Assembly (NCBI GenBank): GCA_030867685.1
Contig: JAQOWU010000007.1
Location: 2,480,001 to 2,544,000, forward strand
From: Wickerhamiella versatilis
Taxonomy: Eukaryota
Direction: 5' to 3'
Length of the DNA: 64,000 nt
Shown here: positions 17,012 to 42,265 of the stretch, in pieces
Position numbering within the stretch: the first letter of the stretch is position 1
Layout: the number at the start of each line of letters is the position of its first letter
The notes under the pieces: generated by a model
Seen by the model: only the letters and a program-made list of their open reading frames with translations
Database searches by the model: none
Told to the model about the DNA's origin: nothing
Program-made: the position numbers and the translations under genes

Positions 17012-20000
17012 CTAAAGTAGCAGGATTCCAGCAGCCACACTTAGTAGAAGTGCACTGAGCGGATTCGTCCTTCCTGCAGTATTTGCGATAGCTGGAACAC
17101 TGGAAGTTGTTGCAGTACCAACGGAAGTAGATTTACTAGGAGATTCAGAATCTGCTGAAGGTGCATTGCTTGAAGCAGCAATCGGACTAGACTCACTGTA
17201 AGTTTGAGACAGAGTCGCAGTGGTTACACTTGAAACATCAGGAAGCATGGATTCATTGGATTCAGAGGGCCTTGCAGAAGCAGTACCATGTGAAGCAGAG
17301 CTGGTTTCGGCGGTTGGTACACTGGTTGCAGCAGTCGGAGCAGCAGTCGGAGTTCCGGATGTACTTTGCCCAATTGTTAAGGATGTGGGACCAGAAACAG
17401 TGTAAGTAGATGAGCCATGGGTAAATGTGGTGGGTGAAGGACAGTAAGTGGTGAAGACAGTAGCTTCTGCTGTCTTTGTAGAGCCCAAACTCGCTGAATT
17501 ATTTTCCTCACTCTTACTCTCGGTACAATCGCACTCCTCTATAGACATTGTTGTTTCTTTTGTCACAGTGTAAATGGAAGAACCATGAGTGAAAGTAGTT
17601 GGCGATGGACAATACGTCGTGAAGTAGGTTGCATCTGCTGTTACCGTTTCACTGGTACCAGACACACTTGAATCAGTATTAATTCCAAACGAACTAGTAG
17701 GAATTGTTCCTGTGGAACCTAATTCTGTACCCGCAGTACCTGTATCCATAGCGCTAGTACTAGTATCACTCAACCCAGTACCAATAGCGCCAGAACTAGT
17801 GACACCTGGATTTGTACCGGTGGTATTAGTACCTCTGGTACTTGAACTAGTAAGGATCACACCTGAACCAGTAGCAATTGTTCCTGTAGAACCTGATTCG
17901 GCACCCGCAGTACCTGTACCCATAGCGCTAGTACTAGTATCACTCAACCTAGTACCAATAGCGCCAGAACTAGTGACACCTGGATTTGTACCGGTGGTAT
18001 TAGTACCTCTGGTACTTGAACTAGTAAGGATCACACCTGAACCAGTAGCAATTGTTCCTGTAGAACCTGATTCGGCACCCGCAGTACCTGTACCCATAGC
18101 GCTAGTACTAGTATCACTCAACCCAGTACCAATTGCACCAGAACTAGTGACACCCGGTTTTGTACCGGTGGTATTAGTACCTCTGGTGCTTGACCTGGTA
18201 ATCATCGCGCCTGAACTAGTAGGAATTGTTCCTGTAGCACCTGATTCTGTACCCATAGCATTAGTACTAGTATCACTCAACCTAGTACCAATAGCACCAG
18301 AACTAGTGACACCTGGATTTGTACCGGTGGTATTAGTACCTCTGGTACTTGAACTAGTAAGGATCACACCTGAACCAGTAGCAATTGTTCCTGTAGAACC
18401 TGATACTCTACCCGTAGTAGTTGACCCACTACCAGTGGCAACACTATAAGTCGAACTAATTGGTGCTGATATGAGTGTACTCTTCGAAGCAAGTGATGGA
18501 CTTAGATTGGAGCTCCAGCCTGAGACTTGTTGGGAAGCACTAGTGGAAAGACCCGGTATGAATGATCCTGAACCAGTGCCAGATATAGAAGGTGATCCAA
18601 TACTTCTGGAGGAACTCATAGATCCACTATAGGCAAATGGATCTTTACTCGACTCATGCTTGCTAGAAGAATGTTCAGTAGATGTATCAGTAGTAGTCAC
18701 GTTTTCGGTTACAGAACTCACACTGGGATTGACAGAGCCTGTAGCCGGAGTGCCTGTGGTGGAAGCTCCTTCAGCCGTTGACTTCTGACTGCTGCCAGTA
18801 GACGCAGAGGGTCCTGGCTTCAAAGAAGAAAATGACAGAGTCACGGTCCCTGAAGTAATAGGTGGACTATTGGACATTGTGCTGCTGAGTTCCGAACTCA
18901 CTTGCGAAAACGATGAGAGGCCGGTATTCGATCCAGCACCAGTATACGATGTGGAGGATGTGGAGCAGTCACCTGATGATCCTGTAATATCGTACCCGGA
19001 TATGTGATTCAACTTGTCAAACGGTAGCATACCGTTGATACTATCAATGATCTTGTTGAGGTCATTGATAGAATCTGAGGACGAATTTACCTCATCCCAC
19101 AACACACAGCAGGGACGGTTCGAGAGTCCACCGCTAACCTGAGTAATGGTATTCGATATTCCATTGGTTATTAGATTCAGAGCTGGCACAAGTGGTGCGA
19201 TCGCTTGAGAAACCCCAGAACTTTCAAGACCTCCTAAGAGTTGATTATCGATTTTCAGGAACTGGGAAAGGGTATTCAAGAACTCTGCCTGACTGCTATA
19301 ACTGATGCAATTAATGCTACCAGATGTACCTGTAAGGTCATTGAAAACTGATTCAAGCGAGTTGAGTTCATTGGGAAGGTCGAATATATTAATGCCTGAG
19401 TTGAAGGTATTAGCCGCAGCATCTACTGCTTTCTGCAGACTATCAATAATGTCGCCAAAACTCCCTTCATTGTCACACTGACAGCTTGAGGTGGCAGTAG
19501 GAACAACTACGTTAGAGCTAGTTGGACTCGTGAACTGAATGGTCGACGAGGCCAAGCTTGATATAGTGGTTGGGATACTACTGGCAATATTGCCTGAATC
19601 ACTGCTCGATGAGGCCAAGCTAGATAGAGTGTTGGAAATACTGCTGGTGCTATCACTTGATTCACCCCCTGAGGTATCACTGGCCATATTTTTTGAAGAG
19701 GTTGAGCCTGGTGTCGTGGTCGATCTTGATATAGTGGTTGAGATACTACTGGCAATATTGCCTGAATCACTGCTCGATGAGGCCAAGCTAGATAGAGTGT
19801 TGGAAATACTGCTGGTGCTATCACTTGATTCACCCCCCGAGGTATCACTGGCCATACTTGTTGAAGAGGTTGAGCCTGGTGTCATGGTCGAGATGCTGGT
19901 GGTTGCAGATGATGAGCAATCGCCAGATGATCCTGTAATATCGTACCCAGATATGTGATTCAACTTGTCAAACGGTAGCATACCATTGATACTATCAATG

Positions 20001-21427
20001 ATCTTGTTGAGGTCATTGATAGAATCTGAGGACGAATTTACCTCATCCCACAACACACAGCAGGGACGGTTCGAGAGTCCACCGCTAACCTGAGTAATGG
20101 TATTCGATATTCCATTGGTTATTAGATTCAGAGCTGGCACAAGTGGTGCGATCGCTTGAGAAACCCCAGAACTTTCAAGACCTCCTAAGAGTTGATTATC
20201 GATTTTCAGTAACTGGGAAATAGTATTCAAGAACTCTGCCTGACTACTATAACTGATGCAATTAATATTACCAGATGTACCTGTAAGGTCATTAAAAACT
20301 GATTCAAGCGAGTTGAGTTCATTGGGAAGGTCGAATATATTAATGCCTGAGCTGAAGGTATTACCCGCAGCATCTACCGCTTTCTGCAGATTATCAATAA
20401 TGTCGCCAAAACTCCCTTCATTGTCACACTGACAGCTTGAGGTGGCAGTAGGAACAACTACGTTAGAGCTAGTTGGACTCGTGAACTGAATGGTCGACGA
20501 GGCCAAGCTTGATATGGTGGTTGGGATACTACTGGCAATATTGCCTGAATCACTGCTCGATGAGGCCAAGCTAGATAGAGTGTTGGAAATACTGCTGGTG
20601 CTATCACTTGATTCACCCCCTGAGGTGTCACTGGCCATATTTTTTGAAGAGGTTGAGCCTGGTGTCGTGGTCGAGACGCTGGGGGCTGCTGACGATGAAC
20701 AATCGCCAGATGATCCTGTAATATCGTACCCAGATATGTGATTCAACTTGTCAAACGGTAGCATACCGTTGATACTATCAATGATCTTGTTGAGGTCATT
20801 GATAGAATCTGAGGAAGAGTTTACCTCATCCCACAACACACAGCAGGGACGGTTCGAGAGTCCACCGCTAACCTGAGAAATGGTATTCGATATTCCATTG
20901 GTTATTAGATTCAGAGCTGGAACAAGTGGTGCGATTGCTTGAGAAACCCCAGAACTTTCAAGACCTCCTAAGAGTTGATTATCGATTTTCAGGAACTGAG
21001 AAAGGGTATTCAAGAACTCTGCCTGGCTACTATAACTGATGCAATTAATATTACCAGATGTACCTGTAAGGTCATTGAAAACTGATTCAAGCGAGTTGAG
21101 TTCATTGGGAAGGTCGAATATATTAATGCCTGAGTTGAAGGTATTAGCCGCAGCATCTACTGCTTTCTGCAGACTATCAATAATGTCGCCAAAACTCCCT
21201 TCATTGTCACACTGACAGCTTGAGGTAGCAGTAGGAACGACTACGTTAGAGCTAGTTGGACTCGTGAACTGAATGGTCGACGAGGCCAAGCTTGATATAG
21301 TGGTTGGGATACTACTGGCGATATCACTTGATTCACCTCCCGGGGTATCACTGGCCATATTGGTTGAAGAGGCTGAGCATGCTGCTAATTGAATTATAGC
21401 TTGTACGAAGGCCTTCATTCGCACCAT
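17012..21427 (-). CDS. Large GPI-anchored cell-wall protein/adhesin with three Cys-containing helical repeat domains, a Ser/Thr/Gly stalk and two TTYCPSPTTFTHG (Ccw12/Sed1-type) repeats
   Basis: N-terminal signal peptide, C-terminal GPI signal ANTAGRTNPLSALLLSVAAGILLL, internal repeats visible in DNA and protein. Confidence 0.9.
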   Translation of the reverse strand: MVRMKAFVQAIIQLAACSASSTNMASDTPGGESSDIASSIPTTISSLASSTIQFTSPTSSNVVVPTATSSCQCDNEGSFGDIIDSLQKAVDAAANTFNSGINIFDLPNELNSLESVFNDLTGTSGNINCISYSSQAEFLNTLSQFLKIDNQLLGGLESSGVSQAIAPLVPALNLITNGISNTISQVSGGLSNRPCCVLWDEVNSSSDSINDLNKIIDSINGMLPFDKLNHISGYDITGSSGDCSSSAAPSVSTTTPGSTSSKNMASDTSGGESSDSTSSISNTLSSLASSSSDSGNIASSIPTTISSLASSTIQFTSPTSSNVVVPTATSSCQCDNEGSFGDIIDNLQKAVDAAGNTFSSGINIFDLPNELNSLESVFNDLTGTSGNINCISYSSQAEFLNTISQLLKIDNQLLGGLESSGVSQAIAPLVPALNLITNGISNTITQVSGGLSNRPCCVLWDEVNSSSDSINDLNKIIDSINGMLPFDKLNHISGYDITGSSGDCSSSATTSISTMTPGSTSSTSMASDTSGGESSDSTSSISNTLSSLASSSSDSGNIASSISTTISRSTTTPGSTSSKNMASDTSGGESSDSTSSISNTLSSLASSSSDSGNIASSIPTTISSLASSTIQFTSPTSSNVVVPTATSSCQCDNEGSFGDIIDSLQKAVDAAANTFNSGINIFDLPNELNSLESVFNDLTGTSGSINCISYSSQAEFLNTLSQFLKIDNQLLGGLESSGVSQAIAPLVPALNLITNGISNTITQVSGGLSNRPCCVLWDEVNSSSDSINDLNKIIDSINGMLPFDKLNHISGYDITGSSGDCSTSSTSYTGAGSNTGLSSFSQVSSELSSTMSNSPPITSGTVTLSFSSLKPGPSASTGSSQKSTAEGASTTGTPATGSVNPSVSSVTENVTTTDTSTEHSSSKHESSKDPFAYSGSMSSSRSIGSPSISGTGSGSFIPGLSTSASQQVSGWSSNLSPSLASKSTLISAPISSTYSVATGSGSTTTGRVSGSTGTIATGSGVILTSSSTRGTNTTGTNPGVTSSGAIGTRLSDTSTNAMGTESGATGTIPTSSGAMITRSSTRGTNTTGTKPGVTSSGAIGTGLSDTSTSAMGTGTAGAESGSTGTIATGSGVILTSSSTRGTNTTGTNPGVTSSGAIGTRLSDTSTSAMGTGTAGAESGSTGTIATGSGVILTSSSTRGTNTTGTNPGVTSSGAIGTGLSDTSTSAMDTGTAGTELGSTGTIPTSSFGINTDSSVSGTSETVTADATYFTTYCPSPTTFTHGSSIYTVTKETTMSIEECDCTESKSEENNSASLGSTKTAEATVFTTYCPSPTTFTHGSSTYTVSGPTSLTIGQSTSGTPTAAPTAATSVPTAETSSASHGTASARPSESNESMLPDVSSVTTATLSQTYSESSPIAASSNAPSADSESPSKSTSVGTATTSSVPAIANTAGRTNPLSALLLSVAAGILLL
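17700..18400. repeat. Coding tandem repeat, 4 units of 174/174/159 nt (about 58 aa, Ser/Thr/Gly stalk)
   Basis: tagtatcactcaacc recurs at 17761, 17935, 18109 and 18268. Confidence 0.9.
18960..21370. repeat. Three near-identical ~600-nt domain repeats plus repeated linkers within the adhesin
   Basis: Units start near 18960, 19911 and 20691 (spacing 951 and 780 nt); the protein unit CQCDNEGSFGDII...SGYDITGSSGDC occurs three times. Confidence 0.95.
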
Positions 21428-22859
21428 GTTAATAGTTCACTGATGGACAACCATCTGAATTTAATATAAGGCGGCTGGTATGCGCAATTCAGTGGCTCCT
21501 GCAGATTGCTGTGGTTTATATTTCGTAATGATGCATTGCATTAAATCTCTACATTAGGTATGAAATATTTCACTGTGGAAAAGAAAATGAACAACCTAGC
21601 CAAACTAATATTGAATTGAATATATTACAATTGGGTATACCAAACCAGTATTTTTTAATCATTCCATTCACATTTTGATACCCAGACTTTTACAAGGGTG
21701 TCAAGGCGCTGTCGGCATATGTACACTTTCTTAGTAATTATGTACAGGGTAAACCATACCACACCCTGGCCGTTCTCGAGCCAGCACAGTGCCCTCCCAC
21801 GAAAATATGTCTTGCTGGACTTCCCAGACCGGAATCTCACTATAGAGGATGTCGCAATATATAAGGTCCAAGATTACCGAAAGAAAATCAGGGGCAAGTA
21901 CTTAGACATGCATCGACTGTGAGCCCCTACCCATGTTGGATTACTTTTTTTTTAGTGATGGGACTCGTCAGAAAGTGAAGCAGGCCTATATTGGAATTAT
22001 AGAAAATTAGTTTTTATGTAATTGATACTAGAGTACTAGTCGCGATAATTATTATTATTTAGATGCTTTTTATTCCCAATCATCACGAACATTCGATTTG
22101 CGATTCGTCGAGAACCAGGTCCTCCATGTGATTAATCATTTTTTCTCGCTGGTTGTTCGTATCGCTAAATACCTTATGTGTAGCATTAGCGTATTAAGTG
22201 GTCACCCAATCGGGCATCATAGAGTAACAGCCAACTCGAGAAAAGAATACTGCAGTTTGGATTATTAGTTTATAAGCTCTCTTGGACTCATTACTCTTGG
22301 CGTCTTGAGCACAGTTTTCTTTTTTAGCGAAGGGTACGGTAACGTACAAAATTTGCAGTTTTTTTACAGCTAGTCTCTAGTTCCTGAGCCAGCATTATGT
22401 GTTAAATTACGAGTATATGCTACTATCTTATGGTAAGCGACATGGGTCAACCTAGATCGTGGCAAAAGATGTGTACGACTTGGGCAACTTCCGAGACAGA
22501 TGAGCCGAGGAAAGCACATAGGTAAATATCTAAAAATAAATGGGTGTAGTGCTTGTTTTTTGCGTAGTAAAAGAAGCAGAGTGAGCAGGCTGAAGTCAAT
22601 GCAACTCCTGTTCACTGCATACAGAGTGATCAAACCCACATTCACAACTGCAGTCACATCCACACAAGCTATATCCACGAGTATTTCTTATATGGGTATA
22701 AAGCTCAGTCCAAGTTTCTTTTTTCCAGGTGGATTTTCTCAAATTTCTATTTCAGGATTTCTTATGTTTTCGGACTTGCAAGGCATATACGCTTACTCAT
22801 ATGCGCCTGTCATGACGTCACGGCTGCCCAACACTGTGAGATACGAGACATGGGGCTAG

Positions 22860-23960
22860 ATCGGCAGTCCCTCATGAAGCACCTCGGGGTAGCAGTATGA
22901 ATTGTTGATACATAAGTACGATGACTTATCTGTGGATCCCAAACAGGATCCTCGTCTTGAAATATTAAACCAATTCCATAATTACATGAGAAATTCCCTC
23001 AGACATCAAAGTATTCAGAGACTTTGAATACATATGGTCTACTCTACACACTACCAGGAACTAATTCCAGTCTGAAACCAATTGTATTGTTGGCTGATCA
23101 AGATGTTGTACCGGTAAATCCTTCAAACATTGATCTATGGGAGTACCCACCATACTCAAGCTACTTTGATGGCGAGGATGTTTGGGGCCGCGGCAGTTCG
23201 GACACGAAAAACCTTTCGGTGAGTATTTTGGAAGCAACTGATAACCTACTTCGACAGAATTGGAAACCATCTCGTACCGTGATTATTGCCTTCGGTTTTG
23301 ACGAGTGGTTGGGTGGAGAACGTGGTGCAAAATCACTGGCTGAATAAATTGAAAGGCGATATGGATCTAACTCAGTTCATTTCCTTTTGGACGAGGGGGG
23401 GGGTTGTTATATGAATCAGGGGCTCTTTACGCTCTACCTTCTGTAGCAGAAAGAGGCTATGCTGGCATTAATCTAGTGCTTGAAACTCTAGGTGGCCATT
23501 CTTCTGTACTTCCGCATCATACTGGAATCGGAATTGCCGCGGAGGTTATCACGAGGCTTGAAAACATAGACTTGTTCAAACCAAGCTTGAATGAAGGTCA
23601 TCCCCTAGTTAAACAACTTGCTGTACAAGCACCATATTCACCTGAACTCGATGAGAAAACACAGCAAAAATGGGCAAGGCTTACATATGACGAGAAAGCA
23701 CGTCATGCACTTGCCCATGAGCTAGAGAAAGATAGAGCACTGCGTGCTTATGTTACCACTAGCCAGGCCATAGATGTTATACATGTTGGAGTGAATGTCA
23801 ATGCGCTACCTGAAAGAGTAGAAGTGAAAACGAACTATCGTTTCAAGTTGGATTCTTCAGCAGCAGCAGTGCATGAATGATACCTAGAAATTGCTGAATC
23901 TGTGGCGAGGAAACATGACCTTGGGCTAACCAAAGGCAACAATCTTGAGCCTCATCTCAA
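22860..23960 (+). pseudogene. CPS1: Gly-Xaa carboxypeptidase (Cps1, M20 peptidase) pseudogene, 3'-truncated
   Basis: Fragments KYDDLSVDPKQDPR..FHNY, NTYGLLYT..SLKPIVLLADQDVVPV (metal His changed to Asp), WGRGSSDTK, FGFDEW, LLDEGG, GGHSS, TTSQAIDVI..NALPE. Stops at 23345 and 23878, a frameshift at the G9 run 23395-23403, and no C-terminal part. Confidence 0.88.
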
Positions 23961-24287
23961 GATTCAGATTTTAATTCATAAAGCGATCGATAATTTCAGG
24001 AAACATATACGAGCCTGCATAGTGGCTCAGAGACAAAAAGCTGTAAATACTAGAAAAAGGAAAGTAGTAAAGTGCTCAGGAAAAAATTACAATCAGACCA
24101 TGGAAAGAGTATAAGATTGACTCCCTATTTCCAGAATTAGGATGGCCCCAGTGCCGTCATTTTTTCTAAACTTAAATAAACCTACGCTAGGTGAGTCTTT
24201 CAATATAGAGACGTTAAGTGAACATCATTTGAATAACGCAATTGTGTGTGCTAGTTGCGGATGGAAGTGTTGCCTCGTCTTCACTCG

Positions 24288-25292
24288 TTATAGACAGACA
24301 ACCTTTTTCATATAGCGTCTCCCTTCTAACATCTTGTGCTGACGCATATCAGCAAGCTTATAGGCAAAGTGCCAAAGGGTGTCAAAGAATATCAAGGGTA
24401 CCATATTGCCCTGAAATCGCTGATCTATACCACTGAGATCAAGCTCTTTAGCATCGAGTACAAGGATATTTTCGGTGGAGCCAAAGAGGTGTAGGAATCT
24501 CTCCGCTCTTTCCTCAAGCGGACGAGAGCGGTCTAGCCCCTTAAGCAATACAAACGCCCGATTCTCATCTAAGACCTCAAATGGACCATGGAAGAACTCA
24601 TTTGCATGAATAGCTTGGCTGTTAATCCATAGCATCTCCATCAATACACAGATAGAGAATGAATAAGATGCACCGTAATCCGCCCCACTTGCTAAAGAGT
24701 AGATAATATCTTCGTTAGCAAACCGTGGAGCATATTCAGCAAAAAGAGGGCTGAAGGTTTTTATTGCGCGATCAATGGCGGGTTGCAAAGCATGTATGCT
24801 GTCGGCTAAAGGCTGATTGAGATCCTCTCCCCCCGTCATTGAAACTAACCCCATAATCAGTTGATAAATACGCGAGTAATTGCTGTCTTTCGAGTCTATG
24901 GGGATTCCTGTTGTGTAATGGGCCTCAAATTCAATGACATGCTCTACTACATTAGCAAGTGGTGAGTCACTGTCCGCAGTAAACCCGATGGTGGTAGCCC
25001 CTATCTCCTTGGCAAATTGGGCAGCATCAGTCGTTTCCCTCGTTGTGCCTGTAGTGGAGCACAAAATCACCAGAGAATCTTCGCTAAAGACTTTTGGAGT
25101 AAGCGCAAGAAACTCTGCTGCGTTATAAACACTAGAGGCTACGTTACAATGTGTATCAAACAAGACCTTGGCCCCTTTCAGAACGGAAAGGGACCCACCA
25201 CAAGCAATGAGAAAAACATGATTCAGGGCTGAATATCTCAAAGCCTCTAATGTTGCGACGACTCTGTTGTCATAACTCGTAGGAAACGACAT
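24288..25292 (-). CDS. frlB: Bacterial-type fructosamine/fructoselysine-6-phosphate deglycase (double SIS domain)
   Basis: ACGGS, CSTTGTTRET, SICVLMEMLWI, IHANEFFHGPFEV and C-terminal RRYMKKV resemble Bacillus FrlB motifs (EYFHGPFE, RRYMWKVEY). 334 aa, intronless. Confidence 0.9.
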   Translation of the reverse strand: MSFPTSYDNRVVATLEALRYSALNHVFLIACGGSLSVLKGAKVLFDTHCNVASSVYNAAEFLALTPKVFSEDSLVILCSTTGTTRETTDAAQFAKEIGATTIGFTADSDSPLANVVEHVIEFEAHYTTGIPIDSKDSNYSRIYQLIMGLVSMTGGEDLNQPLADSIHALQPAIDRAIKTFSPLFAEYAPRFANEDIIYSLASGADYGASYSFSICVLMEMLWINSQAIHANEFFHGPFEVLDENRAFVLLKGLDRSRPLEERAERFLHLFGSTENILVLDAKELDLSGIDQRFQGNMVPLIFFDTLWHFAYKLADMRQHKMLEGRRYMKKVVCL

Positions 25293-25430
25293 GGTTGGAA
25301 GTAAGCCACAAAGATAGTCCTGTGCTAGTAATTATATAGTGGTGACAAAGCTTAAGGTATACCGGAAGGTCACTCCGATATTTATCTAATACTATAGATA
25401 ACGACTTGAAACAACTCACGATGTCTTACG
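25293..25430. promoter_or_regulatory. 138-bp bidirectional promoter with a central CGG-N9-CCG (CGGA-N7-TCCG) Zn2Cys6-type site and TATA-like elements on each side
   Basis: CGGAAGGTCACTCCG at 25363-25377, TATATA at 25333-25338, TATTTAT at 25379-25385. Confidence 0.5.
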
Positions 25431-26324
25431 ATGTCTCGTCCACCAAAAATTCTTGCCTTTGGCGATAATGTTGTCGACTGTTATAGCGATCGAAAATTGA
25501 TGTTTCCTGGTGGAAACGCTGTCAACCACTCAGTCTTTGCCCACCGTGCCGGGGCCGAAACTTTCTACGTGGGAAAAGTTGGAACCGATCGCGCAGGACA
25601 CCTACTGCATCAATCATTAGTAGATGAGGGTGTTGATACAAGTTTGATGCGGTTCGGTCCAACGACAACGGCATTTTGTTTGATCGAAACACATGATGGA
25701 GATAGGGTGTTTGTCGGATGTCATCTCGGAGACTCTATTATCGCACCAGGAAGAAAAGATCTTATGAAGCTTTCTGAATGTGATGCAGTGCATACGGGCC
25801 GATCAAGCCATATTGACGCGTGGATACCGACTTTTAGTAAATTAACAAAAGTTTCCTACGACCTTGCCACGGTTCATGAAGAGAAGCGTATAGCAGCAGT
25901 GGCGCCATTCTGTTTTTTGATGTCCTTCTCAGGTAGCAATTTGTCGTCAAGTTCCGCACAAGAACTTGCACAGTTTGCCGTTCGAAAAGGGAGTAAATGG
26001 AGCCTGGTAACTAGAGGAGAGCATAGTGCATTTCTAGTCAGCTCAGAGTCAGTTTTCGAAAAAAAACCATTGTCTATCAATGTGGTTGATACACTTGGTG
26101 CAGGGGATGCATTTATCGCCAATGTGCTTGTAGGGCTGTTAGCTGGGCAAGGGCATCCCAATGCTGTACTCGATATGGCGGCTCAAGCGGCGGCAAGCAC
26201 TTGTCAGGTTGCTAGTGCATTCGGTCATGGAGTACCGATAGATATCGATATATCGCAATCCATGAGTTTAGAAGCCGTATATGCTACTACTAAGGCAGTT
26301 CCGGGGCCCGCGCAGGTGCAGTGA
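25431..26324 (+). CDS. frlD: Bacterial-type fructosamine/fructoselysine 6-kinase (PfkB family)
   Basis: N-terminal GDNVVDCY..MFPGGNAVNHSVFA matches FrlD (GDNCVDIY..GGNAVNVAV). PfkB signature VVDTLGAGDAFIA. Adjacent to frlB. Confidence 0.88.
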   Translation: MSRPPKILAFGDNVVDCYSDRKLMFPGGNAVNHSVFAHRAGAETFYVGKVGTDRAGHLLHQSLVDEGVDTSLMRFGPTTTAFCLIETHDGDRVFVGCHLGDSIIAPGRKDLMKLSECDAVHTGRSSHIDAWIPTFSKLTKVSYDLATVHEEKRIAAVAPFCFLMSFSGSNLSSSSAQELAQFAVRKGSKWSLVTRGEHSAFLVSSESVFEKKPLSINVVDTLGAGDAFIANVLVGLLAGQGHPNAVLDMAAQAAASTCQVASAFGHGVPIDIDISQSMSLEAVYATTKAVPGPAQVQ

Positions 26325-28749
26325 TTAGAGGCCTTTTCTGCCTGTCCTACTCAAACGGGATCTGGATGACTCTCTATATACCGACAGATATATTGCGTTT
26401 ATATTTATCTGTAATACAAGGGTATATTGGAGTATGATAGCTGACTCCACTACTTGAGACTGGTGATAAAATGCAAAACAACATGACTTGTGCGTAGGAT
26501 TACACTTGATAGTTGATAGAAGTCGGAACTTATGCCGCACTGACAGCGATTGCAATTACTTAAAGCCTTCTCTTAAGAACTCTGTATTATAATTTCTCCT
26601 AGAGCGAGAGTTACATTATTCGTCTGTCCGTATACCCGGGTCCACATCGCTGGAAAATATTGGAATCTAGACGATTACTACACTTGATACTTTAGAAGGA
26701 AGAGTCCAGTGTATCTAGTACCTAGTGGCCAGTGAACTCTGGGAGCGTAATTTAATCCGACCTTTGTGTTGCATGAGCAATGAACATAGCTTCGAGATCA
26801 GGTAGTATCTATAGCCATGGTACGCGAAGATCTAACCATACGAAAGTTTGAATATTCGCGCATCTGCTTCGGCTAGTGGGCTATATATATATATCCTCAA
26901 GCTAGCGCCAGACCTGAGACTATCTGCTAAAAATGTGCCTCTTGGTCGCTGATAGCGCTGGTTAGATGTTAGGGAATCACTTGGCTTGTGAGCTAGAAAC
27001 GCGTATTTTAGCCAGATTTTATTTTATTCTTGATTGGTTATTGGCATATATGTGCCCTAATAATGGTATTGTGTTTAAATTATAAGTGAGAGTTCGATAT
27101 CGAAGGTAGGTGAAAAGGTTTGATGGATCTCGACTGGTCTCAATTCTCGATAAGGCGTTTTGAAAACCATGGCCATGGGGTCGAGGAATTGAATCATCTA
27201 CATCCCATTTATATCTAGCTTCTAAAAGGGGAGAGCTCGTTTATATTAGATTAGATTATGCTAATCTACACCCTTTTGAGTGCATGATTCTTCGAGTCGA
27301 AAGAATGCATAAGGGAAGAGCAGTTTCTTCTTATTCATGTGTGACTAAAAGCTAACACCATCTAGTTTCTCTGTTGTAGGATATCTGCCTGCGTGCCGGT
27401 ATATGCCGTTATATTGATAAGCAGATCATATACTGAAACTAGTCTTACCTTGATGATTGTACTTACACGATCCCTTTATCTGTGTATCTACCACCTGCTA
27501 TTATACTTTCTGCTCTATTGATATATATTTGTATGTCGTGGGTGCGAGCTGAAAATATATGTTTCTAGATTTGGCATCATAATATTCAGTTACTCATCTC
27601 ACTATTTAAGCAAGCCAGTTTGCCAACCCTGACGGCTCTTCACATTTTATACTTACTAGGTTCTGAACAAGTGTCAATACAATCGATAGATTCTTGCTTT
27701 TTCTTTTTTCATCAATCGGATCTGCATTGACGTCTGCGTTGACGATACATGGTAGCCCACTCCCGTAGCGAAGCCTGCACTTTGTCACAGCCCCTCCAAC
27801 CATTCCAGACTCACTAGATTTCCAGACCACTGATGTGCTAGCTAGAGGTGTACACTAATTGCTACGTCCTTTTTCATGCTGAAGATACTTATAGTACTCT
27901 TATCCTAGTAATGATTATACCGTCTATATGTGCACGGATGTAAATCAATATCGGTGACGCATGGTCTACGCACATATCAGCTATCTTGCCTGCTTTCATG
28001 TAGCCAAAGAGAAGACACCAGTAAAAGTGACAAAGCAAAGCCTCTTGTCGAATGTGTCATTGGGTTATCTTGCATTGTCCAACCAGCTCCTAAACTCAGT
28101 CATACTCCAAAAGTACAGGTGTTCACGGATATTTTTAATTGGATCCGGAATGGAACATTAGAACAAGTATCTATTCCCTAGAAGAGCCTTATTCTATTTC
28201 ACAATTAGTATATAGAGACATCGACTTATCCATATTGATGGCTTGTTTTTTCGCTGGTTCAGCCAATAATAAGATCAAGCCTTTCTCCCCAATCATCCAC
28301 ATCCCGATGTACGGTATACCGCCCCAGCAGGGTTTACCTTAAACTGACAAAAGCTTTAGGTCGGCAACGGCAGCGATAGCGCAGCGGAGAACGCTAGAGG
28401 GTGAAGCACCCCCCAATAAAAAGTCAGCTCAGGTCTGACGTGAGAACATCTATTTTGATTACCCGGATTTGATTGCGGATATAAATTCTAGGATTACCAG
28501 TTTTGGGAGAACAACTGATAATACGACGCTCCAAGGAGATAAAGCCAATGAGATCATGAGCTCATAGACCTAATTAAATACAAATGAATCTCTTTTATCA
28601 ATATTCGGCCACGAAATTTATCGTAAAATTGTGTAAATCGCACCTAAGAGCAAAAGTTACTAAGGGGTTATAATACTGGCATCAAATCGTGTCTAAATAA
28701 ACGTCAAATTTGGCACAATTTTCATGTTATATACTACCTTCTTCCATCC

Positions 28750-29250
28750 CACCCGCATACGTATCTTGGCATTTAGTAACCTGAGTTGGGCAATCACTGT
28801 TCAGATTATTCATGCTCACCTGTTTTGGGTCAAAGAAGCTCTCCACCCACTATTACATAGCCCTTCGCATCTCACAGCCCTTACCCTCAAAATAACTCCG
28901 AGTGCGCATATTACATAACATACAACATAGATGATGACTCTAAATGGTCATTATACGTTATTGGCTAACATCAGTCCACTGTTTGGGACTCGGGAAAACG
29001 TATAAATTTCACCCGCATACTTACCTTGGCATTTAGTAGCCTGAATCGTCCAATTACTGCAGGCTCGCCTGGGTAGCGATCACATAAGCTTTCTATTATT
29101 ATTTAAGAAATTGGCGGTTGTAACCCTTACCCCAAGAATGACTCGGAATGCTCGCGTTACATAATAGATATTACATTATGGATGATGATTCTAAATAGTC
29201 AGTATATCTTATTGGCTATCATCAGCACTCTACTTGGGTCTCGCGGGAAC
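28750..29250. repeat. Diverged non-coding tandem duplication, period about 260 bp
   Basis: cacccgcatac-ta-cttggcatttagta-cctga at 28750 and 29010; cccttaccc...gatgatga-tctaaat-gtca...ttattggcta-catcag also occurs twice. Confidence 0.85.
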
Positions 29251-29442
29251 ACATCAGGTGTGTTTTGCTCACAAGCAACTCCAACCAGTCATCACGGCTG
29301 TGATACACTAATGCTTACTCTCGAAACAGATATAGCATGAACTGAACTACAGTGACGATGGGTGATCGACAAGGTTAGGATCGTCGCAATTATGGAGTTA
29401 GTAATTCCACACCAGACATCCCCTTCTACCATTCTTCGCATC

Positions 29443-30693
29443 ATGTGGAAAACTGGATTTCTCTTGCTGTCACTAGTTAATGCCCTTATTGACTTCAGCG
29501 AACCCATTCGAGGTGTGTCACTGGGCTCTTGGCTAACTGTAGAATTCTTTTTGACCCCTTCGCTATTTGATAACACGCTAGCTCTCACGGAGCACTCTTT
29601 GACGGCTCAGTTAGGCAAGGAACGTTCTCGAGAAGTACTGCAGCCTCATTGGGACAATTTTATTTCAGAAGCAGACTTTGCGAAGATGGCGTCATGGGGA
29701 ATAAATTTTATTCGCTTGCCAGTTGGCTATTACACGTTCCTACTGCGAGATGGCGATCCCTACGTCGATGGCCAGCTACCATATCTCGACAGAGCCATGG
29801 GGTGGGCGCGTAAGTATGGTATTCAGGTACTTATCGACCTTCATGTTGTTCCTGGTTGGGAAAACTTCAATAACATTGATGAGATTGGGATTCCCTGGGT
29901 GGAAAGCCAAAGTGATATTGACGACACTGTCGAGGTGATTCGCAGAATCGTTAGCAACGTTACTGAGAAGTGGGATGGGGTTGTGACTGGAATTGAATTG
30001 CTGAATGAGCCCATATCACCCATAGATTTACCCCTGGGACTTGTCTATGAGATTACTTGGTTCACTGCGAGATTCTACAAAAATTTGTACTCATATTACC
30101 AAAGATGTATGGAGATAATCCCTGACAATATCAGTGTTGTAATAAATGATTATGGTCAGGGAGCTCCCGATCCTAACAATTGGTTCCTCAATGATAGTAG
30201 AGTGAGTTTCGACTATCACTATTACGACATTTCTGACACTAACCTATTCGGGTCTCAACCTGTCTCAGAGAATGTACCAGCAGTATGCAACAATGCGCCA
30301 AAATGGTATGGAAAAGATCCTAGGCGTCACTTCGTTGGAGAATTCTCAGGGACAAGAGCTGAATGCGAGCGGGTTTTAGCTGGATTCTCAGATTCCATCC
30401 CACCTTGTCATGGTGTTAACAACATTTCTTCTTCGGATTGGTGGACCACAAAGTATCGGGATGATACTCGTAGATTCATTGAGGCTCAACTTGATGCATT
30501 TGAGTCGAGCGGAAATGGCTGGGTGTTCTGGACGTACAAAACTGATGATGGTATTGCTCTCGACATGAGGCATTTAGTGGAATACGAGATATTCCCAGTG
30601 CCATTCAATGAACGCAAGTATCCCAATCAATGCAGTAATTTGCAACAGTATACAAGCTCTCAAGCTTCAAGTACTCCGACGTCGACTTCTTGA
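29443..30693 (+). CDS. Secreted GH5 exo-beta-1,3-glucanase-like protein (Exg1 family)
   Basis: Signal peptide MWKTGFLLLSLVNA, IRGVSLGSWL, IRLPVGYY, IDLH, acid/base ELLNEP, nucleophile GEFS, GWVFWTYK, RKYPNQC. Confidence 0.92.
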   Translation: MWKTGFLLLSLVNALIDFSEPIRGVSLGSWLTVEFFLTPSLFDNTLALTEHSLTAQLGKERSREVLQPHWDNFISEADFAKMASWGINFIRLPVGYYTFLLRDGDPYVDGQLPYLDRAMGWARKYGIQVLIDLHVVPGWENFNNIDEIGIPWVESQSDIDDTVEVIRRIVSNVTEKWDGVVTGIELLNEPISPIDLPLGLVYEITWFTARFYKNLYSYYQRCMEIIPDNISVVINDYGQGAPDPNNWFLNDSRVSFDYHYYDISDTNLFGSQPVSENVPAVCNNAPKWYGKDPRRHFVGEFSGTRAECERVLAGFSDSIPPCHGVNNISSSDWWTTKYRDDTRRFIEAQLDAFESSGNGWVFWTYKTDDGIALDMRHLVEYEIFPVPFNERKYPNQCSNLQQYTSSQASSTPTSTS

Positions 30694-31383
30694 GAAATCT
30701 CAAGTCTCAAAAGCGACGTTTATCAAAAATACAAATAGGCTAATGACACATTCCATTAGTTGTGCAAAAAAAAATGAGGCTATAGCTATTGAAGTTAACA
30801 TGTTATAGACATAACACACGTGGGAAAAGGAATTGCTAATGGCTAGTTTTCAACGTGAGCTCTATCTTGGTTGGCTTTTCCTAAATTGGTGGCTTGTACC
30901 ACAGGTTTAGCTAATAAATTTTCTTTCATACTCAATAACAGTTCAACAAGTCGCCTTGAATAGCTATAAAGCATCTCGTCGTTGAAAGCCCTGTTTTCTA
31001 TTTACAAACGAGAATAAAAATTTAGTTAGAAGATAAACATTCGACCTGGAGGCACACTGCACATTCCAGCGAATCAAATTACATAGCTTCACGGCCCACT
31101 GATCTACCATATGAGTAATTAGCGGCACCCTGGAATTTCCCGGTTCGTGTGATCGACAACGGGAAACACCGGCGCATATTTGTAAGTGCAACATCAGCAA
31201 GGTACTTTTTTCAAGAAAAACCGAAATAATGTGGCATTTTTTAAGATTTAATCACCTCGAGCGAGCCCAAAATCCAGTTCTTGATGAGGCCATTTCACGT
31301 AATCTGCCGGCTAGGAAGATCAATGTGTAATTATTTTTTAGTCATATTGCTTTCTAGTAACTAACCTTCGCCACATCCTACGT

Positions 31384-32403: not shown

Positions 32404-33837
32404 ATGTATCTACTTGAAATTCTCACAGTTTTATGTGCTGCTGTGGCATTTCGGGACCCGAATTATGAAGGGAAAAAGGCTTTCTCCCAAGAATGTTTGG
32501 ATCGGTATAATCCTTTGAAGTTTCTCGGGAATTACGGGCCTTACTCGTCGAGAACCGGACTGGGAATCAGCACTGCAACCCCAGAGAATTGTACTGTGGA
32601 CCAAGTGATCCTCCTAGGTCGCCACTCCGAGCGCTATCCAGATCCAGACGATGCACGTGCGCATTTAGCTGTACTTAACAAAATCCAGCAGGGTCACTCA
32701 GGTAGCTTCAGAGGTGATGACCTAGCATTTCTTGATAAATGGACGTATTTTTTGGATAATGAGCTTGCAAATGCTGCACTTGAAATAAGACAAGGTCCTT
32801 ATGCAGGTCCAGCCAGCGCGTATCGCTTTGGCTCGGAATTTCGACAGAAGTATGGGCACCTCTGGGACCACCATTCTCAAATTCCTATTTTCTCAGCGGA
32901 TAGTGAACGGGTACTCAACACAGCCCGAGCTTTTGGTGAGGGATTTCTGGGTTACAACTACTCGAGCATTGCTGCGGTTCAGGTATTGCCGGAGATAAAA
33001 GCTACAGGAGCGAACGCCCTAAGTCCCGCTTATTGCAAAACACCACAAACGTCGCATTGCAACATTGATATTTCTAATCTTGTTTTTCCTGCTTTTAACA
33101 CAGCAGCCGCACGGCTCAATTCCCAGTACGGACTCGAGTTGAATGGCACCGATATCAATACATTGATGGAGATAGGATCATTCGATGTTAGTTCCAGAGG
33201 TTCTTCACCATGGCTGGATGTGTTTACAAGTGAGGAATGGATCTCATACGAGTATCTTAGGACCCTGGACGCTTACTGCAACCAAGGGCCTCAGTCAGAC
33301 GTTGGTATGGCAATAGGGGGAAGCCTGATGAACGCGACTTCCAGATTACTAAATGAAAATCCGCCATCGCTGCCTATCTCTCTAAACTTTGCATATGATA
33401 CTGTGATTACGAAGGCTCTGGCTGCAGCTGGAATATTGACGCCAAAAGAAAATCTGAGCAAGACTAATGTGGTGCTTGGCAGTGGCTATGATATTTCTGA
33501 TATAGCACCAATGGGTGCGAGACTTGTCATAGAGAGGTTGAAATGTGGGGATGGCTATTTCGTCCGCTTCATTCTCAATGACGCCGTGCTTCCACTGGAG
33601 TTTGGGCATACGGGACCAGGGTTCTCAACCCCTCTTTCAGAGTTCACCAACCATATTCAAGATCGAGTGAGCAAGTATAATTATAATAGTGTATGTGCAC
33701 CGGCTGAGGCAGGCGTTCCAGCCGCCCCAAGTTTCTGGTGGGATTACAATACCTCCGCTGGAATCAATCATCAAATTGGTCCCATTTTGTTCCAACAAAA
33801 TTTTGGGGACTGCTCCGTGCACGCCTCGCCGTGCTGA
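32404..33837 (+). CDS. Secreted histidine acid phosphatase/phytase (Pho5/Pho3 family) with variant catalytic motifs
   Basis: Signal peptide; RHSERYP (canonical RHGxRxP); NFAYDT (canonical HD); PMGARLVIERLKC; VRFILNDAV. Confidence 0.9.
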   Translation: MYLLEILTVLCAAVAFRDPNYEGKKAFSQECLDRYNPLKFLGNYGPYSSRTGLGISTATPENCTVDQVILLGRHSERYPDPDDARAHLAVLNKIQQGHSGSFRGDDLAFLDKWTYFLDNELANAALEIRQGPYAGPASAYRFGSEFRQKYGHLWDHHSQIPIFSADSERVLNTARAFGEGFLGYNYSSIAAVQVLPEIKATGANALSPAYCKTPQTSHCNIDISNLVFPAFNTAAARLNSQYGLELNGTDINTLMEIGSFDVSSRGSSPWLDVFTSEEWISYEYLRTLDAYCNQGPQSDVGMAIGGSLMNATSRLLNENPPSLPISLNFAYDTVITKALAAAGILTPKENLSKTNVVLGSGYDISDIAPMGARLVIERLKCGDGYFVRFILNDAVLPLEFGHTGPGFSTPLSEFTNHIQDRVSKYNYNSVCAPAEAGVPAAPSFWWDYNTSAGINHQIGPILFQQNFGDCSVHASPC

Positions 33838-35719: not shown

Positions 35720-37219
35720 ATGCGATATTTATTTCTGATATGCAGCATTTTTGCGGCTGATGCTCTAGTATTCAGCTCGAACGTCCCTTACTCGCAGACC
35801 TTCGAGGATAACTATAATGTCCTGAAGTATACGGCCAACCACGGACCGTATTCCAATCGTCGTAGTTTTGGCGTATCTTGCGATCCTCCCGATGGTTGCG
35901 AAATTGAGCAGGTTGTTCTTATCATGCGGCATGGTGAGCGATATCCAAGCAAAGGCTCCATGAAGAATATAGAGAAAAGCGTTGGGAAGTTAATGAGCAA
36001 AAAGGGCAGCCTGACAGGCTCTCTAGAATTTCTAAATAATTGGAAGCTGTATTCTAACTCAGAAAGTGGATGGATTGAGGCAGAGTCTACCACAGGCGCC
36101 TACAGTGGGCTGCATGATGCGCATACGGCTGGTACGCTTTATGCAAACCGTTACGGCTACCTATGGGACAAGGATGAAATCATTCCAGTATTTACGAGTG
36201 GGTATGCTCGTGTAATCGATACTGCACGTGAGTTTATGCGCGGCTTTTTCGGCTACAACCTCACACAGGCAGCCCTGAATATCATTCCAGAGACCCCTGA
36301 CCAAGGAGCGAACACTCTTGTTCCTCAATGCCTGAACACCTCTATTGGTAAACCCGCCACTTGCTCAAATAACTGGGACTACCCTCCTTTCCATCAATTG
36401 GCCAAAAAGTGGAACTCAGAGTACGGGGTATCGCTTGAATGGAGAGACATCTTTAACATCGCTCTAATGACTATCTATGAATTGAATGTCGTCGGAAGCT
36501 CTCCGTGGGTTAGTGCAATTCCTAGTGATGTGTGGGTTGCCACAGAGCATTATCTTAGCTCCCAGTTTTACTGCCAATCGGGTCCTGGTTCACCCGAAGC
36601 CATTGCAAGGGGCACAAACTTCTTCAATGCGTCCCGCACACTCCTTATGCAGGGCCCCGAGAATGGCATGCCATTGTCCTTAAACTTCGCCCATGATGGA
36701 GATATTGCCGAATTGCATGCTGCAACAGGATTGGAGCCGGCCCTCGGCTTTAACGATTCATATATCCAGCTGCACCCCGGATACCACGCAGCAGACATAA
36801 TTCCTATGGGAGGCCGTGTGATATTCGAGCGAATGAGGTGTTCCAATTCCGACTTCAACGCGACATGGACTGAAAAATACCCTTTAAGCGTCAACATGAC
36901 TGATGCCATCGATAGCGTGAATAGCACCAAGGGTTCCGATGTATATGTGCGTATCATTTTCAATGAGGCTGTGGTTCCTATCGAGAAATGTCAGTCAGGT
37001 CCGGGCCTCTCCTGCCCGCTTCAGGACTACTCAAACTATGTAGACTCTCAGATTTCCGGGCGATTATTCGCCGACGTGTGCAATCTCACTGACAACGCAC
37101 CAAAGCACCTATCATTCTGGTGGAACTACAATACCACCACTAATCTTAACAAGATGAATGACACCTTGGGATTCCAAGCGAAGGGCACCAATTATCTTGG
37201 ACAAGCAATTGGTAGCTGA
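35720..37219 (+). CDS. Secreted histidine acid phosphatase/phytase (Pho5/Pho3 family)
   Basis: Signal peptide; intact RHGERYP and NFAHD; PMGGRVIFERMRC; CQSGPGLSCPL; many N-glycosylation sequons. Confidence 0.95.
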   Translation: MRYLFLICSIFAADALVFSSNVPYSQTFEDNYNVLKYTANHGPYSNRRSFGVSCDPPDGCEIEQVVLIMRHGERYPSKGSMKNIEKSVGKLMSKKGSLTGSLEFLNNWKLYSNSESGWIEAESTTGAYSGLHDAHTAGTLYANRYGYLWDKDEIIPVFTSGYARVIDTAREFMRGFFGYNLTQAALNIIPETPDQGANTLVPQCLNTSIGKPATCSNNWDYPPFHQLAKKWNSEYGVSLEWRDIFNIALMTIYELNVVGSSPWVSAIPSDVWVATEHYLSSQFYCQSGPGSPEAIARGTNFFNASRTLLMQGPENGMPLSLNFAHDGDIAELHAATGLEPALGFNDSYIQLHPGYHAADIIPMGGRVIFERMRCSNSDFNATWTEKYPLSVNMTDAIDSVNSTKGSDVYVRIIFNEAVVPIEKCQSGPGLSCPLQDYSNYVDSQISGRLFADVCNLTDNAPKHLSFWWNYNTTTNLNKMNDTLGFQAKGTNYLGQAIGS

Positions 37220-41079: not shown

Positions 41080-42265
41080 CTGTTCCTTGATGGAGAGAGA
41101 CTCTGAATCGCTTGAGTAAGCGTTGATCGCCATTACATGAATAAGAATTGAGCGAGGAGGTCAAATACCGATGATGTAATAGAGGATCTGCACAGTGGTC
41201 GTGGACGAGGATCGCCAACCAGTCGACTGATTATCATTAAACCTATGCTGTTAATTAAGCCTATACTGCTCGTTTGAGTAGTATTTTCCTAACTAGAACG
41301 ACTTGAGCAACACAATACAGGATACAATCTAGACCAGTATGTGCAGACAATACTTACGAGAGTTCATATAATGAGTAGAGCTATGATTACCAAGTAGAAC
41401 TGAAATATGACGTAAAAGAGGGGGGTCTGTATTATATACTACTTTTTTGATCAGAATCATCGCATCTTCCAATCCGGCTTTAAGTGTAAATGTACGTGAC
41501 TTTTTAAACATGCTGTTTGACGATCTCAAGGAAAGTGGCCTCTACCCATGTCTAGTGTCCTATGAAAGCCACTCGAAATAAACCGCGGATAGCTGGTTTC
41601 TTGCTCCTGCATACAGATCTGCATGAACATCGTTATGTCAATCCAGCCCGAAGTACCTAGTTAGTAACATAACGTCTTTATTTGCTGCACTTATTACCTA
41701 CTCTCTAATGTAATGACGTGTCTAAATTTTCATGGTTTTAGTGTATGCCGTCTGCGAATTTAAAGCACTATAACCCACTATTAACATCATGGGAGAAGCC
41801 CTTAGTAATAGTACTGTTTTATTTTTTTAGTGTGCAAGATTTCAACCTGTATATTGTCTAATACAAGAGTTATACATGAGCCCTATTTCATGCTTAATAT
41901 CCGCATGTTGATCATACTGGCCTTACCTTCTCTTGTTACTACTTGGAAGCGATCGACCTAAGGGTTAACCTAGCCCAGACTTACTAGCCAAGGCGGGCTG
42001 TATGTGATACTGATATCACTACTTGAGATTTAGAACGTTTCTCTTACGAGACAAATGAGCCTGCACGTAATCGTATTAGGTTTGGAACCAGTGCTCTTTT
42101 GAAATTTTATGATCAAGCCGGAATATTTTGTGGATGTTCGGACAGTGTAAGTGACATGTGAAAATGATACTAGCACCGAGATATCCAACACAATTGAGCT
42201 ATCTTGCATTATGGTTTCTCGATATTCAAAGAGAGTAGCTTTTGAGTAGAAGGTGCGTTACCATT

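Follow-up and report, generated by a model that had tools for sequence, protein, structure and literature searches.

The window analyzed here is a 64,000-nt stretch of the genome of the yeast Wickerhamiella versatilis (GenBank assembly GCA_030867685.1, contig JAQOWU010000007.1, positions 2,480,001 to 2,544,000 of the forward strand), and positions given below are counted from its first letter. Within it, two intronless genes stand head-to-head across a 138-bp spacer, one coding for an SIS-fold homolog of the deglycases FrlB and FraB and the other for a PfkB-family homolog of the kinase FrlD. It is likely that this pair is a two-step fructosamine (Amadori compound) module that was acquired horizontally from an alphaproteobacterial source and has been functionally maintained in the yeast. 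The pair and its immediate surroundings are laid out as follows.

24288..25292, minus strand: deglycase gene, 334 aa, SIS fold, FrlB/FraB-type homolog, very probably of alphaproteobacterial origin
25293..25430, no strand: spacer, 138 bp between the facing ATGs, presumed bidirectional promoter
25431..26324, plus strand: kinase gene, 297 aa, FrlD-like PfkB-family sugar-amine kinase homolog, very probably of alphaproteobacterial origin
21428..24287, no strand: left flank, few open reading frames (ORFs), from the gene of a Ser/Thr-rich protein (17012-21427, minus strand) to the deglycase gene
26325..29391, no strand: right flank, few ORFs, from the kinase gene to an exo-beta-1,3-glucanase gene (29392-30693, plus strand)

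ORFs of the window were called with the standard genetic code. Those of the deglycase and the kinase contain no internal stops, and since the termini of both proteins coincide with those of bacterial homologs in alignment, both are full length and no intron is required. Chance ORFs are ruled out because homolog E-values reach 1e-150, and the gene pair is certainly real as a genomic feature. A sequence-only reading of the locus, made without database searches, had described intact, intronless FrlB-like and FrlD-like genes diverging from a 138-bp gap, and the ORF coordinates and full-length alignments agree with that description.

The deglycase matched the Pfam SIS model at 59.3 bits (cut-off, 25), and the kinase matched PfkB at 96.7 bits (cut-off, 25.8). 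The best NCBIfam model of the deglycase was fructoselysine-6-phosphate deglycase (NF008481; 105.5 bits, against an equivalog cut-off of 430), and that of the kinase was fructoselysine 6-kinase (NF007321; 136.3 bits, against an equivalog cut-off of 247). Both matches span nearly the whole models; for the kinase, residues 7-263 matched positions 4-260/261 of NF007321, which was the top-scoring model by a wide margin. On its sequence, the deglycase is best placed as a member of the wider deglycase family and not as an FrlB equivalog. Its best solved structure was PDB 3eua, annotated as a "putative fructose-aminoacid-6-phosphate deglycase," to whose positions 6-327 residues 5-331 aligned with an E-value of 2.8e-72, followed by 3fkj, 9otj, and 8glr (1e-45 to 5e-32). 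Relatives of the kinase among solved structures were generic PfkB proteins only.

Mutagenesis of Salmonella FrlB and FraB, as described in PMC10285752, places the general-base Glu and the general-acid His always 16 residues apart (E224/H240 in FrlB, E214/H230 in FraB), with the two residues supplied by different subunits of the dimer, and lists the equivalents of S46, S91, S93, G94, T96, and E98 as conserved. We mapped residues by motif, the numbering of that report being offset from the E. coli record. In the yeast deglycase, E219 and H235 lie 16 residues apart within MEMLWINSQAIHANEFFHGPFEV; the E...H pairs of E. coli FrlB and of 15/15 aligned bacterial homologs occupy the same alignment positions, and the block that holds the two residues is identical or nearly identical to that of the bacterial relatives. 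Phosphate- and substrate-site residues are also kept (CGGS at 31-34 and the Ser/Thr phosphate loop S79-T-T81-G82-T-T84-R-E86). PfkB-family proteins are defined by an N-terminal GG and a C-terminal DTxGAGD motif. The yeast kinase carries GG at 27-28 and DTLGAGD at 220-226, the latter standing opposite DTMGAGD in the alignment to E. coli FrlD. The yeast kinase and its alphaproteobacterial homologs also have in common a C-terminal extension of ~35 aa, which E. coli FrlD lacks. All five natural alleles of the deglycase (0 to 12 aa differences) and both natural alleles of the kinase (0 and 16 differences) were full length with unchanged motifs.

Homologs were sought in a database of 5.8 billion proteins covering all of life, and the best 120 matches per protein were examined (for the deglycase, the best 120 of 487 matches among 2580 candidates). 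Among these 120, a single deglycase match, encoded on a 654-kb contig, was 98% identical and the other 119 were 61 to 69% identical, and 17/17 rows with an organism name were Alphaproteobacteria. For the kinase, one match of the best 120 was 95% identical, the other 119 were 52 to 60% identical, and every organism-named row was alphaproteobacterial. No fungal-named match was present among the best 120 for either protein, and none of them fell between 69% and 98% (deglycase) or between 60% and 95% (kinase). The nearest Atlas clusters were 100% and 97 to 100% Bacteria, which we treated as leads and not as tests. When one genome of each prokaryote species was scanned, 80 loci were recovered, all of them alphaproteobacterial; this collection holds no eukaryotes and bears on the donor only.

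Maximum-likelihood (ML) trees were built with a Priestia plasmid locus and the E. coli K-12 frl operon as outgroups, a search of named control genomes having given no locus above the cut-off. In the deglycase tree (86 rows, quick search, rooted on the Priestia plasmid homolog), the yeast alleles sat on a branch of 0.72 inside a 42-row bacterial clade with a Shimodaira-Hasegawa-like approximate likelihood-ratio test (SH-aLRT) support of 97. In the kinase tree (81 rows, two loci truncated at contig ends being left out), the two yeast alleles sat on a branch of 0.75 inside 30- and 34-row clades (SH-aLRT, 99 and 97). A concatenated tree (careful search, 45 taxa by 628 columns) supported at 100/99 the split of the yeast pair together with the co-directional loci termed architecture A below, a Rhizobiaceae-dominated clade, with two Rhizobium loci (L004 and L030) as the nearest rows (92/80) and a yeast branch of 0.92 substitutions per site. 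Many loci of this clade lie on large plasmids (pSymA, At-type, Microvirga, and Paracoccus). We conclude that horizontal gene transfer (HGT) of the pair from an alphaproteobacterium is very likely and that the donor was most likely drawn from the Rhizobiales/Rhodobacterales gene pool of soil- or root-dwelling bacteria, in the form of a Rhizobiaceae-type megaplasmid locus.

Two other accounts would dispense with a transfer: contaminating bacterial DNA or chimeric assembly, and an old fungal gene pair passed down vertically. Nothing beyond the bacterial affinity of the two proteins speaks for them. Composition argues against contamination. GC content and GC content at third codon positions (GC3) were 0.449/0.439 for the deglycase gene and 0.471/0.379 for the kinase gene, within the 0.42-0.50/0.37-0.52 of their neighbors and indistinguishable from the values of the 21 other ORFs of the window, and the means of bacterial homologs were 0.59/0.75 (deglycase) and 0.62/0.69 (kinase); codon-usage scores of both genes also fell inside the range of their neighbors. 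Elsewhere in the window, the ORFs are fungal in type and include genes for a Zn2Cys6 protein, an OPT transporter, an alternative oxidase, acid phosphatases (two), GH5 enzymes (two), MFS transporters, and an amino-acid permease. The closest named proteins of the alternative oxidase are from Dipodascales yeasts (Sugiyamaella, 62%; Trichomonascus, 54 to 63%; Magnusiomyces, 61%; Blastobotrys, 55%).

Physical linkage was assessed in sequencing runs. Among the runs listed, the 2-kb pair region was present in at least 20, from 13 studies, including isolates of what we term organism A (contigs of ~10 to 11 Mb in total) as well as metagenomes of food fermentations or foods. Four runs (X1, X9, X10, and X13) were aligned to 21500-31000. 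A 17,338-nt contig of X1, which may be the window's own source, spans all of 21500-31000 with 3 letters different. In X9, a food-fermentation metagenome of another study, one contig (23602-24762) crosses the junction at the deglycase stop (24288), and two more (25416-26437 and 26423-29534) tile the kinase gene, the right junction, and the way on to the GH5 gene. A third study supplied X10, a food metagenome whose short contigs (24216-24608 and, over the spacer, 25157-25599) show no differences. From X13, of an organism B, a 1,663-nt contig covers 24826-26324 and takes in both genes as well as the spacer; it differs from the window at 76 letters (~5%), and the flanks of organism B are 4 to 10% diverged from the window. 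The integration is thus real and common to a diverged relative. Contamination is countered by host-like composition, by long or tiling contigs from separate studies that join the pair to fungal genes on both sides, and by a ~5%-diverged relative with the same arrangement; vertical inheritance is countered by the lack of fungal-named matches among the best 120 and the drop in identity from 98%/95% to 69%/60%. Together we consider these two alternatives extremely improbable. The sequence-only reading had regarded contamination as unlikely because of the fungal surroundings, and had proposed a horizontal transfer in which both proteins would fall in the same bacterial clade; the junction-crossing contigs of X1, X9, and X10, the host-like composition, and all three ML trees bear it out.

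Among the 80 bacterial loci, kinase and deglycase genes were paired in 76 within the fetched flanks, and the remaining 4 had no kinase gene there. Two arrangements account for the pairs. In architecture A (26/80), the two genes are co-directional and 5.4 to 6.4 kb apart; on Sinorhizobium meliloti pSymA the order is SIS, GntR, ornithine cyclodeaminase (OCD), three amino-acid ABC genes on the opposite strand, LacI, and kinase. In architecture B (50/80), the kinase gene lies immediately upstream of the deglycase gene and is divergent from it, with spacers of 71 to 273 bp (median, 131 bp; 24/50 within 121 to 151 bp, by our own ORF calls); a Paracoccus plasmid locus (L090) has the order TRAP transporter, kinase, divergent SIS, GntR, OCD, LacI, and ABC transporter. 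In the donor-type loci L089 and L090, kinase and deglycase genes always occur with an OCD-family gene, GntR and LacI regulators, and polar-amino-acid ABC (or TRAP) transporters. The yeast layout is that of architecture B, and its 138-bp spacer falls in the modal bacterial range. The lineages basal to architecture A in outgroup-rooted trees all have architecture B, so the head-to-head arrangement is ancestral in bacteria. The bacterial loci also show recombination and paralogy. In locus L029 and in P0002/P0238 (which we assigned to one 3,445-nt contig, their longest contigs being of equal length), the genes are head-to-head, with the deglycase inside the architecture A clade and the kinase in its sister clade. 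One Rhodobacter genome (G002:C49; L081 and L083) carries two deglycase homologs ~9 kb apart on the same contig.

Two histories of the yeast layout have to be weighed. An architecture B donor needs no rearrangement, and an architecture A donor needs a deletion of 5.4 to 6.4 kb and an inversion; for this reason, and because the spacer length lies in the bacterial mode, we think it probable that the yeast received the head-to-head layout from its donor and did not rebuild it. Phylogeny pulls the other way. The ML trees place the yeast pair in the crown of architecture A: the kinase is nested in the 30-row architecture A clade (SH-aLRT, 99), and the concatenated pair lies beside L004 and L030 within a 26-row subclade (95/94) whose genes are the full 5.4 to 6.4 kb apart, and it is at architecture A loci that identity to the yeast proteins is highest. 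Nor did the spacer show any similarity to the bacterial loci, the one match being of 14 nt (E-value, 0.49) in an unrelated place. Both points weigh against an inherited layout. In the rival history, the donor was co-directional and the yeast arrangement arose through a ~5.9-kb deletion plus an inversion, or through two separate insertions. Approximately unbiased (AU) tests, however, did not reject trees in which the architecture A rows exclude the yeast, both for the kinase (P = 0.62, the constrained tree being better by 3.46 log-likelihood units) and for the concatenated alignment (P = 0.41; difference, 1.21 units). A deletion with inversion would furthermore have to recreate by chance the ancestral head-to-head order with a spacer of modal length, and loci that are head-to-head with a deglycase of the architecture A clade do exist (L029 and P0002/P0238). 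Finally, no relics of the intervening donor genes (GntR, OCD, LacI, ABC, or TRAP) were found in the window by tblastn of 9,188 ORF translations from 91 loci: of 484 matches, 2 lay outside the pair, both weak (E-value of 3e-4 at 60750-61274, in an MFS gene, and 1e-3 at 33700-33813). A co-directional donor is on balance an unlikely source, if one that deserves to be kept in view. The sequence-only reading had supposed that an operon fragment was rearranged into a divergent eukaryotic pair; with the head-to-head order native to 50/80 bacterial loci at a median spacer of 131 bp, such a step is unnecessary and probably did not happen, the trees themselves being undecided (AU P = 0.41).

The spacer has a GC content of 0.38, a palindromic TATATA-like element at its center (25333-25340), and two GATAA-type sites (25382-25386 and 25397-25401). 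It presumably works as a bidirectional promoter. Two or more GATAA sites occurred in 6.3% of 138-bp windows of the 64-kb stretch, a background at which the two sites are too weak for a claim of nitrogen regulation; nitrogen control through them is put forward as a suggestion.

With the layout inherited from an architecture B donor, the course of events may be pictured as follows. A ~2-kb head-to-head cassette would have been taken up as such, which we hold to be fairly likely, with the two enzymes as the sole survivors of the donor locus, and its spacer would later have been overwritten to give a short, AT-rich eukaryotic bidirectional promoter. The PfkB kinase would phosphorylate the fructosyl moiety at C6, and the SIS deglycase, as a homodimer with Glu219 as the general base and His235 of the other subunit as the general acid, would convert the 6-phosphate to glucose-6-phosphate and a free amino acid. 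This reaction scheme is modeled on characterized relatives. Fructosyl-amino acids would enter through a host permease, and the benefit would be felt in Maillard-rich fermented foods. Through the shared promoter, expression of the kinase and the deglycase would stay coupled. In Salmonella, fraB mutants are reported to be poisoned by 6-phosphofructose-aspartate (PMC12755824), and co-expression would be advantageous because the phosphorylated intermediate is toxic in bacteria without the deglycase. As candidate substrates, alpha-glycated or other fructosyl-amino acids are as likely as epsilon-fructoselysine.

That the pair is a working fructosamine kinase/deglycase module is, to judge from its sequence, a probable reading, and several observations weigh against it. 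Both proteins score far below the NCBIfam equivalog thresholds for E. coli FrlB and FrlD. The equivalent of Ser93 is a Thr (T81) in the yeast deglycase and in all aligned alphaproteobacterial relatives. The substrate is extrapolated from distant relatives, identities being 26%/29% to FrlB/FrlD, ~31% to MocD, and ~36% to FraB. No transporter gene among the window ORFs adjoins the pair, the nearest being an MFS gene (10278-11864) and an OPT gene (7013-9589); together with the lack of donor transporter relics, this agrees with the sequence-only reading, which had noted no dedicated transporter beside the pair. Between organisms A and B, nucleotide divergence was 4.7 to 5.1% in the genes and 4.9 to 8.1% in parts of the left flank, and with such similar values this measure alone is no proof of recent purifying selection. 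The OCD-family gene of the donor loci, lastly, means that the substrate could be opine-like and not a Maillard product.

This last point opens onto an account in which the pair is functional and its substrate is an opine-like plant or rhizosphere conjugate (deoxyfructosyl-glutamine [DFG]/santhopine or a conjugate of ornithine, proline, or lysine), with even a synthetic direction conceivable. The donor loci, with their OCD-family gene and polar-amino-acid ABC/TRAP transporters on symbiosis or At-type plasmids, speak for it, and one may speculate that these genes hint at a basic or cyclizable amino-acid moiety. Rhizobiaceae homologs MocD and MocE degrade DFG (PMC8087989 and PMC6341043), and relatives of OCD have evolved opine-related activities (PMC8087989); we found no biochemical characterization of the alphaproteobacterial subfamily. 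DFG is, however, itself an Amadori compound, which makes this mostly a matter of substrate range within the same chemistry, and the yeast has kept neither the OCD gene nor a transporter and occurs in food and fermentation metagenomes. Maillard products are plausible in food and fermentation settings. We therefore rate the opine-like substrate as rather unlikely.

Silent or decaying passenger genes without present function would account for the very short 138-bp promoter and the lack of a linked transporter or regulator. Against such decay, neither ORF has been shortened over ~0.9 substitutions per site and full re-equilibration of GC3, all catalytic motifs are intact, the 5/5 deglycase and 2/2 kinase alleles are full length, and organism B keeps both genes, so that we regard passenger status as highly improbable. 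That ORFs and motifs have stayed intact over this branch length and complete compositional amelioration suggests long-term purifying selection in the yeast lineage, and the functional fructosamine module is the reading that we prefer.

The labels of the runs that carry the pair point to food fermentation as the niche of the yeast (two studies confirmed by contig alignment), in place of the nectar, honey, or pollen stores that the sequence-only reading had envisaged. A fuller account, which we offer tentatively, would have the bacterial pair captured whole with its ~130-bp spacer and the spacer converted in place to a minimal bidirectional promoter (TATA-like palindrome and two GATAA sites), possibly under nitrogen-catabolite control; the result would be a first peroxide-free kinase/deglycase Amadori pathway in a eukaryote, its genes kept linked owing to the toxic intermediate, and of adaptive value in fermented foods rich in Maillard products.

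Transfer of bacterial genes and operons into yeasts is already well known. The main texts of two HGT surveys of Wickerhamiella/Starmerella yeasts contain no mention of fructoselysine, fructosamine, deglycase, SIS domain, PfkB, or Amadori compounds; their supplementary gene lists might include the pair. In keeping with the sequence-only reading, which knew of no such pathway in yeasts, our searches of the literature on fructoselysine and fructosamine deglycases in yeasts and fungi yielded no report. As predicted from its sequence, the pair would represent the first eukaryotic Amadori pathway of the kinase/deglycase kind. If working, it would add a third, peroxide-free eukaryotic route beside the oxidases and fructosamine-3-kinase and would recover both glucose-6-phosphate and the amino acid from Maillard products, compounds in which heated and fermented foods are rich. 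The two genes may have moved together as one divergent bacterial unit, and they offer a clean case for how bacterial gene neighborhoods survive transfer into eukaryotes: a divergent pair needs promoter conversion only and no splitting of an operon, and may therefore transfer more easily than co-directional operons. The case also draws attention to a widespread, often plasmid-borne alphaproteobacterial locus with a substrate worth identifying.

The surroundings of the pair yielded further observations. The left flank contains a single ORF of at least 80 aa (22500-22859), and the right flank contains none. Around the pair, repeats that could mark an insertion were limited to short, low-identity direct or inverted pairs, and no tRNA genes were found in the window. 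The left neighbor (17012-21427, minus strand) encodes a 1,471-aa Ser/Thr-rich protein with three nearly identical repeats of ~250 aa and a hydrophobic C-terminal tail, and looks like a glycosylphosphatidylinositol-anchored wall protein or adhesin. The right neighbor, the GH5 gene at 29392-30693, has exo-1,3-beta-glucanases as its best solved relatives (E-values of 8e-63 to 2e-54). Two GH5 exo-glucanase paralogs (29392-30693 and 39760-41133) and two histidine acid phosphatase paralogs (32404-33837 and 35720-37219) lie within 12 kb. With these paralogs, the transporters, and the Zn2Cys6 gene, the region looks subtelomere-like in character, and acquired genes are often found in such regions.

In the right flank, direct repeat pairs of 79 nt (77%) and 50 nt (84%), diverged and spaced ~251 to 260 bp apart, at 28750-29250 suggest an old tandem duplication of ~255 bp just upstream of the GH5 gene. 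At 27566-28090 in X1, several other contigs either stop at or have in common ~32 nt at 28055-28086, word depth is 43 versus 26.7, and one X1 contig omits 27566-28066; a short dispersed repeat or an indel polymorphism of ~500 bp may lie behind this. In organism B (X13), ~498 nt (26324-26823) are missing from the contig directly after the kinase stop, so that the sequence directly 3' of the kinase gene differs between organisms A and B. Elsewhere in the window, a 321-aa protein with a DUF6691 domain (46953-47918, plus strand) resembles two adjoining bacterial genes (YeeE/YedE family and DUF6691) as if fused; as a second HGT candidate it was rejected as unsupported, at ~30% identity to bacterial plasmid genes. 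A 1,073-aa protein (52785-56006, minus strand) with AMP-binding, PP-binding, and NAD_binding_4 domains, that is, adenylation, carrier, and reductase domains, is predicted to be a carboxylic-acid-reductase or Lys2-like enzyme, which we take to be shorter than a typical Lys2.

The true family of the yeast pair is that of the alphaproteobacterial SIS/PfkB loci (S. meliloti pSymA, a plasmid of Paracoccus sp. Arc7-R13, Shinella, Rhizobium, and Ensifer), at 61 to 69% (deglycase) and 52 to 60% (kinase) identity. The proteins share lengths, termini, and the C-terminal extension of the kinase, and many of the loci show the head-to-head order over a spacer of ~130 bp. Unlike the yeast locus, they also carry GntR, an OCD-family gene, LacI, and ABC/TRAP transporters, and their GC3 is ~0.7 to 0.75 versus ~0.4 in the yeast.

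The frl systems are more distant. The sequence-only reading had compared the pair to those of E. coli and Bacillus subtilis; the FrlB/FrlD-like type stands, but the kinship is remote, the actual relatives being the Rhizobiales/Rhodobacterales subfamily. In E. coli and Salmonella, the two-step chemistry of FrlB and FrlD is biochemically established, and the yeast proteins share with them the 16-residue Glu/His spacing and the PfkB motifs at 26% (deglycase) and 29% (kinase) identity to the E. coli proteins; E. coli frlABCDR is a co-directional operon with a transporter, an epimerase, and a regulator, unlike the yeast pair. FrlB of B. subtilis, a 3eua-type deglycase that is encoded with FrlD, has the same catalytic motif block and is the best solved relative of the yeast deglycase, and the pair of a Bacillus-type plasmid is 42%/32% identical to the yeast deglycase and kinase. 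The B. subtilis genes form an operon, frlBONMD, with an ABC importer, again unlike the yeast pair. The kinase-then-deglycase pathway of B. subtilis is reported to favor alpha-glycated amino acids (PMC12632257).

Salmonella FraB/FraD and MocD/MocE of Agrobacterium Ti/Ri plasmids likewise combine a kinase with an SIS deglycase that acts on Amadori compounds, as proposed here for the yeast, FraB and FraD acting on fructose-asparagine and MocD and MocE on DFG (for the latter, PMC8087989 and PMC6341043). By tblastn, the yeast deglycase was ~36% identical to FraB and ~31% identical to an SIS protein encoded beside mocA/B/C/R/S homologs on a 194-kb A. tumefaciens plasmid. At ~31% identity, the yeast pair belongs to the same superfamily and a different subfamily, and orthology to MocD/MocE was rejected. 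On the A. tumefaciens Ti plasmid, the SIS and kinase genes are adjacent and co-directional, unlike those of the yeast.

Fungal fructosyl-amino-acid oxidases (amadoriases) deglycate oxidatively with production of H2O2, and fructosamine-3-kinase acts by 3-phosphorylation. Both handle the same substrate class as that proposed for the yeast pair, through different chemistry and different protein families. The closest precedent for the event itself is the enterobactin operon, which moved into Wickerhamiella/Starmerella yeasts (10.1101/399394 and PMC11043216). There, as here, linked and functionally related bacterial genes were integrated into a yeast chromosome and kept; the enterobactin genes came as a co-directional operon from another donor class and serve another pathway, whereas the present case is a divergent two-gene set from the Alphaproteobacteria.

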